The notes under the pieces: generated by a model
What the model was told of the DNA's origin: nothing
Seen by the model: only the letters and a program-made list of their open reading frames with translations
The model's database searches: none
NCBI RefSeq assembly: GCF_046105845.1
Contig: NZ_CP151004.1
Reading direction: 5' to 3' (one strand)
Origin: Escherichia coli
GTDB taxonomy: Bacteria; Pseudomonadota; Gammaproteobacteria; Enterobacterales; Enterobacteriaceae
Length of the DNA: 64,000 nt
Translations under genes and position numbers: made by a program
Part shown: piece after piece, positions 61,861 through 61,880 of the stretch
Numbering within the stretch: the first letter of the stretch is position 1
Layout: the number at the start of each line of letters is the position of its first letter

Positions 61861-61880
61861 TTGTGTACAAATGTACACAA
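61861..61880. promoter_or_regulatory. Candidate operator: perfect palindrome ttgtgtaca-aa-tgtacacaa between divergent rcdA and ybjJ
   Basis: 9-bp perfect inverted repeat with 2-bp spacer, 21 bp upstream of the rcdA start; geometry typical of TetR-family operators. Confidence 0.45.

Follow-up and report, generated by a model that had tools for sequence, protein, structure and literature searches.

The closest described system is the Escherichia coli K-12 regulator RcdA (YbjK) and its binding site in the ybjJ-rcdA spacer, which were characterized through genomic SELEX, gel shift, DNase-I footprinting, Northern blots and lacZ fusions (Shimada et al. 2012, MicrobiologyOpen, PMC3535384). The ybjJ-rcdA spacer was among the commonest genomic-SELEX fragments (15-22 clones) and was the highest-affinity RcdA target, giving the strongest gel shift among all probes and, at low RcdA, a single protected band in the DNase-I footprint (PMC3535384). 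The palindromic RcdA box in this spacer was given as TTGTGTACAttTGTACACAA, with TTGTnnACA as the unit box (PMC3535384). Derepression of the ybjJI operon without rcdA was detected by Northern blot, where expression was seen only without RcdA, and by a single-copy lacZ fusion; rcdA-lacZ was lower in the rcdA mutant (JW5114), a drop interpreted by the authors as positive autoregulation (PMC3535384). RcdA loads cooperatively, polymerizes along DNA and is rather promiscuous on many DNAs at high concentration (PMC3535384), and about 20-40 loci besides ybjJ-rcdA are bound (PMC3535384 and later work). Later SELEX summaries still include ybjJ/ybjK as an RcdA target. RcdA is also mentioned in PMC9189660, PMC4797297, PMC3946193 and PMC6134199, which contain nothing further about this operator. 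Ionic-liquid tolerance was obtained from rcdA loss-of-function, and RcdA was described there as a “predicted regulator” of the major facilitator superfamily (MFS) pump YbjJ (PMC5691611). RcdA also binds TMAO weakly (Kd 7 mM), and TMAO is unconvincing as its physiological inducer.

The published location of the palindrome required clarification. The text of PMC3535384 treats it under the tfaX-appY clones, the legend of Figure 1 in the same paper puts it at ybjJ-rcdA, and the sequence is printed once, with typographical errors, as TTGTGACAtttGTaCACAA. We searched K-12 positions 580000-586000, which contain the tfaX-appY region, and obtained no match to the palindrome even when 3 mismatches were allowed. 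A location upstream of appY was rejected on this basis, and the Figure 1 legend (ybjJ-rcdA) is correct because the palindrome is absent from the appY region of K-12.

We analyzed a 64,000-nucleotide stretch of E. coli DNA (RefSeq assembly GCF_046105845.1, contig NZ_CP151004.1; hereafter the window), for which a perfect 9-2-9 palindrome between divergent rcdA and ybjJ had been put forward, from the letters alone, as the RcdA operator. Direct reading of the sequence and a repeat finder agree on this element: positions 61861-61880 read TTGTGTACA-AA-TGTACACAA, a 20-bp palindrome with 9-nt arms that are 100% complementary and a 2-nt spacer. The published TTGTGTACAttTGTACACAA is its exact reverse complement, and the RcdA-box unit TTGTnnACA is matched twice in inverted orientation, as TTGTGTACA at 61861-61869 (plus strand) and at 61880-61872 (minus strand). 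Because TGTACA is itself a palindrome, the element at 61861-61880 can also be read as TGTACA repeated directly. The comparison with published RcdA motifs that the original prediction had proposed thus returns the published box. The palindrome is an operator that had already been published, and the prediction, although correct, restates a 2012 result; the gel shifts, footprinting and reporter fusions proposed alongside are likewise largely in print, with the exception of point mutation of the palindrome in reporters, for which no mutants were found in the RcdA literature examined.

The gene assignments and starts given in the original prediction agree with RefSeq. The TetR-family regulator gene rcdA (ybjK; 178 aa) occupies 61304-61840 on the minus strand, as determined by PDB match and RefSeq annotation, with its ATG at 61840 and a Shine-Dalgarno sequence AGAGG, read directly from the sequence, at 61848-61852, 7 nt upstream of the ATG. 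We take ATG 61840 as the real rcdA start, on which the annotation and the PDB sequence agree with the upstream spacing, which varies from species to species. A 188-aa rcdA reading frame that opens at TTG 61870 inside the palindrome (61304-61870, minus strand) was rejected as an ORF-finder artefact. On the plus strand, ybjJ (61924-63132; MFS transporter, 402 aa; ORF list and RefSeq) is the first gene of the ybjJI operon that RcdA represses (PMC3535384), and ybjI (63132-63947), the start of which overlaps the ybjJ stop, is the second (operon stated in PMC3535384). The 2-kb region was matched in 5421 of 5426 complete genomes, with the genes annotated as rcdA, ybjJ and ybjI. The rcdA-ybjJ spacer is 83 bp (RefSeq coordinates carried over from a 99.8% identical E. 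coli chromosome), is identical to that of K-12 MG1655 and is at least 99% identical in 4252 of 5422 genomes. Between the palindrome and the start codons lie 20 nt (rcdA) and 43 nt (ybjJ), which correspond to the distances of 21 and 44 in the original prediction when counted base to base.

The window RcdA matches the crystallized protein (PDB 7acl/7aco/5x5i) at 177 of 178 residues, and the sole difference is Thr82 in the window against Pro82 in K-12 and the PDB entries (codon at about 61595-61597, minus strand). The sRNA gene rybB was located at 61209-61287 on the plus strand (Rfam RF00110, 104 bits, E = 4e-22), just past the rcdA stop and between rcdA and ybjL, the same placement as in K-12. 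In some E. coli lineages (strains Trh52 and SCU-108; loci L082 and L083), A61880 is replaced by G and C61881 by T, which trims the perfect palindrome to 8-2-8.

To assess how exceptional the element is, we searched the window for its 20-mer and found one copy even at 3 mismatches (expected 0.03). The repeat finder returned it as the sole inverted repeat in 61700-62100. A scan of the whole window for perfect inverted repeats (arms of at least 9, spacer of at most 4) gave 6 records at 5 places, compared with 1.7 +/- 1.4 when sequences were simulated under a first-order Markov model. The remaining 4 repeats (1784-1805, 5947-5968, 31680-31701 and 49496-49515; arms of 9-10 bp) are all GC-rich (e.g. 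AAAAGCGCCCGCAGGCGCTTTT) and have the look of terminator- or REP-type hairpins. The half-site TTGTNNACA is not enriched, with 13 occurrences in the window versus 9.6 expected. A lone exact RcdA half-site TTGTGTACA at 24574-24582 (plus strand), about 50 bp past the 3' terminus of an ORF of 648 aa on the minus strand, is probably there by chance. RNA folding of the E. coli sequence lengthens the palindrome as an imperfect stem through the flanks GCAA (61857-61860) and TTGC (61883-61886); this pairing is probably coincidental because the left flank varies in other genera.

The palindrome is almost certainly the primary, high-affinity operator for RcdA (YbjK), a regulator of the TetR family, as SELEX, gel shift and DNase-I footprinting of the identical K-12 sequence demonstrate binding (PMC3535384). 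One RcdA dimer probably occupies the two inverted TTGTnnACA boxes, whose centres are 11 bp apart (the stoichiometry is our own reading), and at higher concentration more RcdA loads cooperatively from the palindrome. Binding represses the divergent ybjJI operon, and the YbjJ MFS pump is derepressed when RcdA is lost; the same operator also controls rcdA. Control of ybjJ, which had been raised as a possibility in the original prediction, is borne out by the derepression of ybjJI in the rcdA mutant, on both Northern blots and lacZ fusion (PMC3535384). The suggested autoregulation holds insofar as the rcdA promoter is autoregulated; the classical negative loop of a TetR-family repressor, which that suggestion brings to mind, has the opposite sign to the published one, which is positive (PMC3535384). 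Binding, footprint, ybjJI derepression and the change in the rcdA reporter are experimental results taken from the literature, to which the present analysis adds the identity, uniqueness and deep conservation of the element.

For conservation, a cross-species set was assembled by taking one genome per species and scanning contigs, which gave 80 loci from Escherichia, Citrobacter, Klebsiella, Raoultella, Enterobacter, Kluyvera, Kosakonia, Leclercia, Lelliottia and others, including Salmonella enterica subsp. arizonae and diarizonae. The 14-bp core TGTACAAATGTACA (61864-61877), which includes the central AA, occurred in one identical copy at each of the 80 loci; in the rcdA orientation it reads TGTACATTTGTACA, and it lies unchanged, in one copy, upstream of rcdA throughout. 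Flanking intergenic bases vary across the 80 species while the core is invariant. That the central AA/TT never changes orientation is consistent with an asymmetric constraint laid over it, such as TACATT, or, equally, with purifying selection against any change, and we give it little weight.

Distances from the core to the two genes behave differently. The divergent neighbor is ybjJ in at least 79 of the 80 loci, and in 78 of 79 a distance of 45-49 bp separates the core from the start of ybjJ. On the other side, the core is 23-126 bp from rcdA overall and 23-29 bp in most species, with gaps of 59-126 bp in Salmonella arizonae/diarizonae, the K. oxytoca group, Raoultella and a few others. In the long-gap loci (L021, L022, L025, L030, L039, L046, L055, L056, L057, L067 and L071), about 35-100 bp of unrelated DNA separates the operator from the ribosome-binding site of rcdA, and the operator-ybjJ spacing is unchanged. 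Across Enterobacteriaceae, it is thus ybjJ and not rcdA to which the position of the operator is tied, and ybjJI may therefore have been its primary target ancestrally. One member of the set, L073 (CACSKA010000002.1), is labelled Chryseobacterium sp. 18061 and carries a typical enterobacterial rcdA-operator-ybjJ locus; its spacing (27 and 49 bp) and its ybjJ identity are the same as in Citrobacter sp. 18056 (L064) from the same study, and its assembly is probably mislabelled or contaminated.

A core-anchored conservation profile and alignment revealed a second conserved block, cTTGcTAgTGTTGTCt (61882-61897), beside the operator on the ybjJ side. Its TTGTC was considered as part of a second RcdA site nearby and was rejected, as a conserved ACA half is lacking across species.

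Candidate promoters were then placed relative to these conserved elements. A stringent scan found no sigma-70 promoter in the spacer, and a relaxed sigma-70 scan was therefore combined with conservation. The genome-wide transcription start table of Kim et al. 2012 gives no start in the interval from ybjI to rybB and none for ybjJ or ybjK. The best plus-strand sigma-70-like candidate for ybjJ has a predicted -35 element TGTACA in the left operator arm (61864-61869), which is invariant across species, and, 17 bp after it, a predicted extended -10 element TGc-TAATGT (61884-61892; -10 hexamer at 61887-61892) at fixed, ungapped spacing to the core. TGn and TAnnGT are each present in 80 of 80 loci, the hexamer varies only at positions 3-4, and such TGnTAnnGT variation is what a -10 element would be expected to show. 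For rcdA, the relaxed scan gave a candidate -10 element TACATT at the operator centre (61870-61875, minus strand), inside the invariant core, with a candidate -35 element AAGACA (61893-61898, minus strand) 17 bp upstream of it, where nnGACA is present in 78 of 80 species. An alternative rcdA candidate, TTAGCA-18-CACAAT, would have its -35 element at 61889-61884 and its -10 element at 61865-61860; the critical final T of CACAAT is retained in 11 of 80 species only. Both rcdA-direction candidates overlap the operator. All of these promoter positions are predictions, as they are weak-consensus matches whose backing is conservation.

Since the operator holds the putative ybjJ -35 element, bound RcdA would occlude the -35 element and the promoter spacer and exclude RNA polymerase, which is the most likely reason for ybjJI repression. 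The rcdA side is harder to reconcile with the published sign. Measured from the operator centre (61870.5), the Shine-Dalgarno sequence AGAGG is 18 bp downstream and the rcdA ATG 30.5 bp downstream. Given that the ribosome-binding site must be within the transcript, rcdA transcription starts at or above about 61853, which places the operator centre at about -17 or further downstream. Judged from these coordinates, such a position would be that of a repressor and not that of a class I or class II activator, in which case the published positive autoregulation of rcdA would need an indirect or unusual mechanism. TACATT as the rcdA -10 element would likewise conflict with positive autoregulation. 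Competition of two overlapping promoters, remodelling of the promoter spacer and an effect of the reporter construct are possible routes to the positive sign.

The first two of these routes could be combined into a distinct reading of the locus, in which the operator sits inside two fully overlapping divergent promoters and RcdA, by blocking ybjJ, thereby favors rcdA, either through removal of RNA polymerase competition or through MerR-type remodelling of an 18-bp promoter spacer (TTAGCA-18-CACAAT). We regard this reading as unlikely, but not negligible. The best candidates on the two strands do overlap completely (-35/-10 at 61864-69/61887-92 for ybjJ; 61898-93/61875-70 or 61889-84/61865-60 for rcdA), the operator holding the ybjJ -35 and the rcdA -10 elements and the neighboring block, which is conserved across species, holding the ybjJ extended -10 and the rcdA -35 elements. 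In the rcdA mutant, rcdA-lacZ is down and ybjJ-lacZ is up (PMC3535384), as a switch of direction would have it. RcdA on the palindrome would, however, cover either candidate rcdA -10 element, and the CACAAT needed for remodelling is poorly kept, its final T being confined to the 11 species mentioned above. Activation through spacer remodelling is not known for TetR-family proteins. If true, this reading would account for the published positive autoregulation of rcdA and would constitute positive feedback by a TetR-family regulator that works through competition between promoters or remodelling of the promoter spacer and involves no classical activation contact.

The palindrome as a primary RcdA operator acting on DNA was also weighed against a function in RNA, as a hairpin in the 5'-UTR of rcdA or ybjJ mRNA with an effect on its stability, termination or translation. 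A 40-nt fold around the element does reach -12.7 kcal/mol on the plus strand and -13.5 kcal/mol on the minus strand (z of -5.6 and -4.4 versus shuffles), and mRNA can be stabilized by the 5' stem-loops that palindromic TetR operators form when they lie at a transcription start (PMC6127294). Across the 80 species, however, the three outer bases per arm vary without compensation, and only the 6-2-6 core is universal. At position 61863, A stands in place of G in 47 of 80 species and the partner at 61878 is C in 79 of 80, so that this pair is an A/C mismatch in those 47, only its left base having changed. Arms of at least 9 bp are kept in just 27 of 80 species; the perfect 9-2-9 form is lineage-specific. 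The 6-bp stem and the AA that it encloses are invariant, as a surface contacted by protein would be, and the outer-arm variation would fit a protein recognition surface with degenerate flanks and not a selected hairpin. Positions 61861-61880 gave no Rfam match, terminator-like site or T-run, neither transcript would hold the whole hairpin under the candidate promoters, and the RcdA footprint is published directly (PMC3535384). A principal role in RNA is thus very improbable.

Equally slight, and if anything slighter, is the chance that the palindrome chiefly serves another factor, CRP-like or TyrR-like, with RcdA as a secondary ligand. TGTGT...ACACA superficially recalls CRP half-sites, and the rather promiscuous, cooperative binding of RcdA to many DNAs at high concentration also speaks for it; the spacing read from the sequence, however, fits neither CRP (TGTGA-N6-TCACA) nor TyrR boxes (TGTAAA-N6-TTTACA). 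The spacer is moreover the top SELEX and gel-shift target, with one clear protected band at low RcdA (PMC3535384), and the element co-occurs with rcdA in 80 of 80 species, in whose RcdA orthologues residues 29-49, the helix-turn-helix, hardly vary and are thus co-conserved. A chance palindrome with no function has next to no probability: short palindromes can arise in AT-rich intergenic DNA, but with 0.03 expected in the window, a core that is invariant in 80 species amid varying flanks and published binding (PMC3535384), a chance origin is already refuted by the conservation and the footprint.

Beyond the published operator, what is added here is modest and consists of the 14-bp core invariance, the positional coupling to ybjJ, the conserved putative extended -10 element and the geometry argument on autoregulation. 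The operator also bears on strain engineering. Loss-of-function of rcdA recurs in ionic-liquid tolerance selections, and the 20-bp operator is a switch to edit or borrow for engineering tolerant strains because this tolerance is attributed to derepression of the YbjJ pump.

Compared with the E. coli K-12 RcdA box in the ybjJ-rcdA spacer (PMC3535384), the element described here is the same one, with identical intergenic sequence; the element itself does not differ, and the window RcdA carries T82 versus P82. Like TetR/tetO and AcrR-type modules, the locus has a TetR-family regulator divergent from a transporter gene, with a palindrome in a short shared spacer, derepression of the pump on regulator loss, and overlap of the operator with core promoter elements, which is predicted in the present case. 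Unlike TetR/tetO, the ybjJ-rcdA spacer holds one operator versus two tetO sites, and unlike both TetR/tetO and AcrR-type modules, RcdA binds many other loci, polymerizes cooperatively and has a reported positive autoregulation (PMC3535384). The EilR/eilO-eilA system of Enterobacter lignolyticus (“Jungle Express”; PMC6127294) is similar in that a TetR-family repressor is divergent from an ionic-liquid-tolerance MFS pump and that its palindromic operator is embedded in both promoters. Unlike the RcdA operator, eilO (AAAGTTGGACACGTGTCCAACTTT) is an 11-2-11 palindrome of unrelated sequence that is present twice per spacer (PMC6127294). The window locus lacks the combination of two copies of the 24-bp eilO consensus (AAAGTTGGACAC/GTGTCCAACTTT) in the spacer with an adjacent EilR orthologue, and EilR (PDB 5vl9) matches RcdA weakly, in the N-terminal helix-turn-helix only (E = 1.4e-4). 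Orthology was rejected on the differing operator sequence and copy number and the weak protein similarity, and EilR/eilO is an analogue, not an orthologue, of the RcdA operator module.
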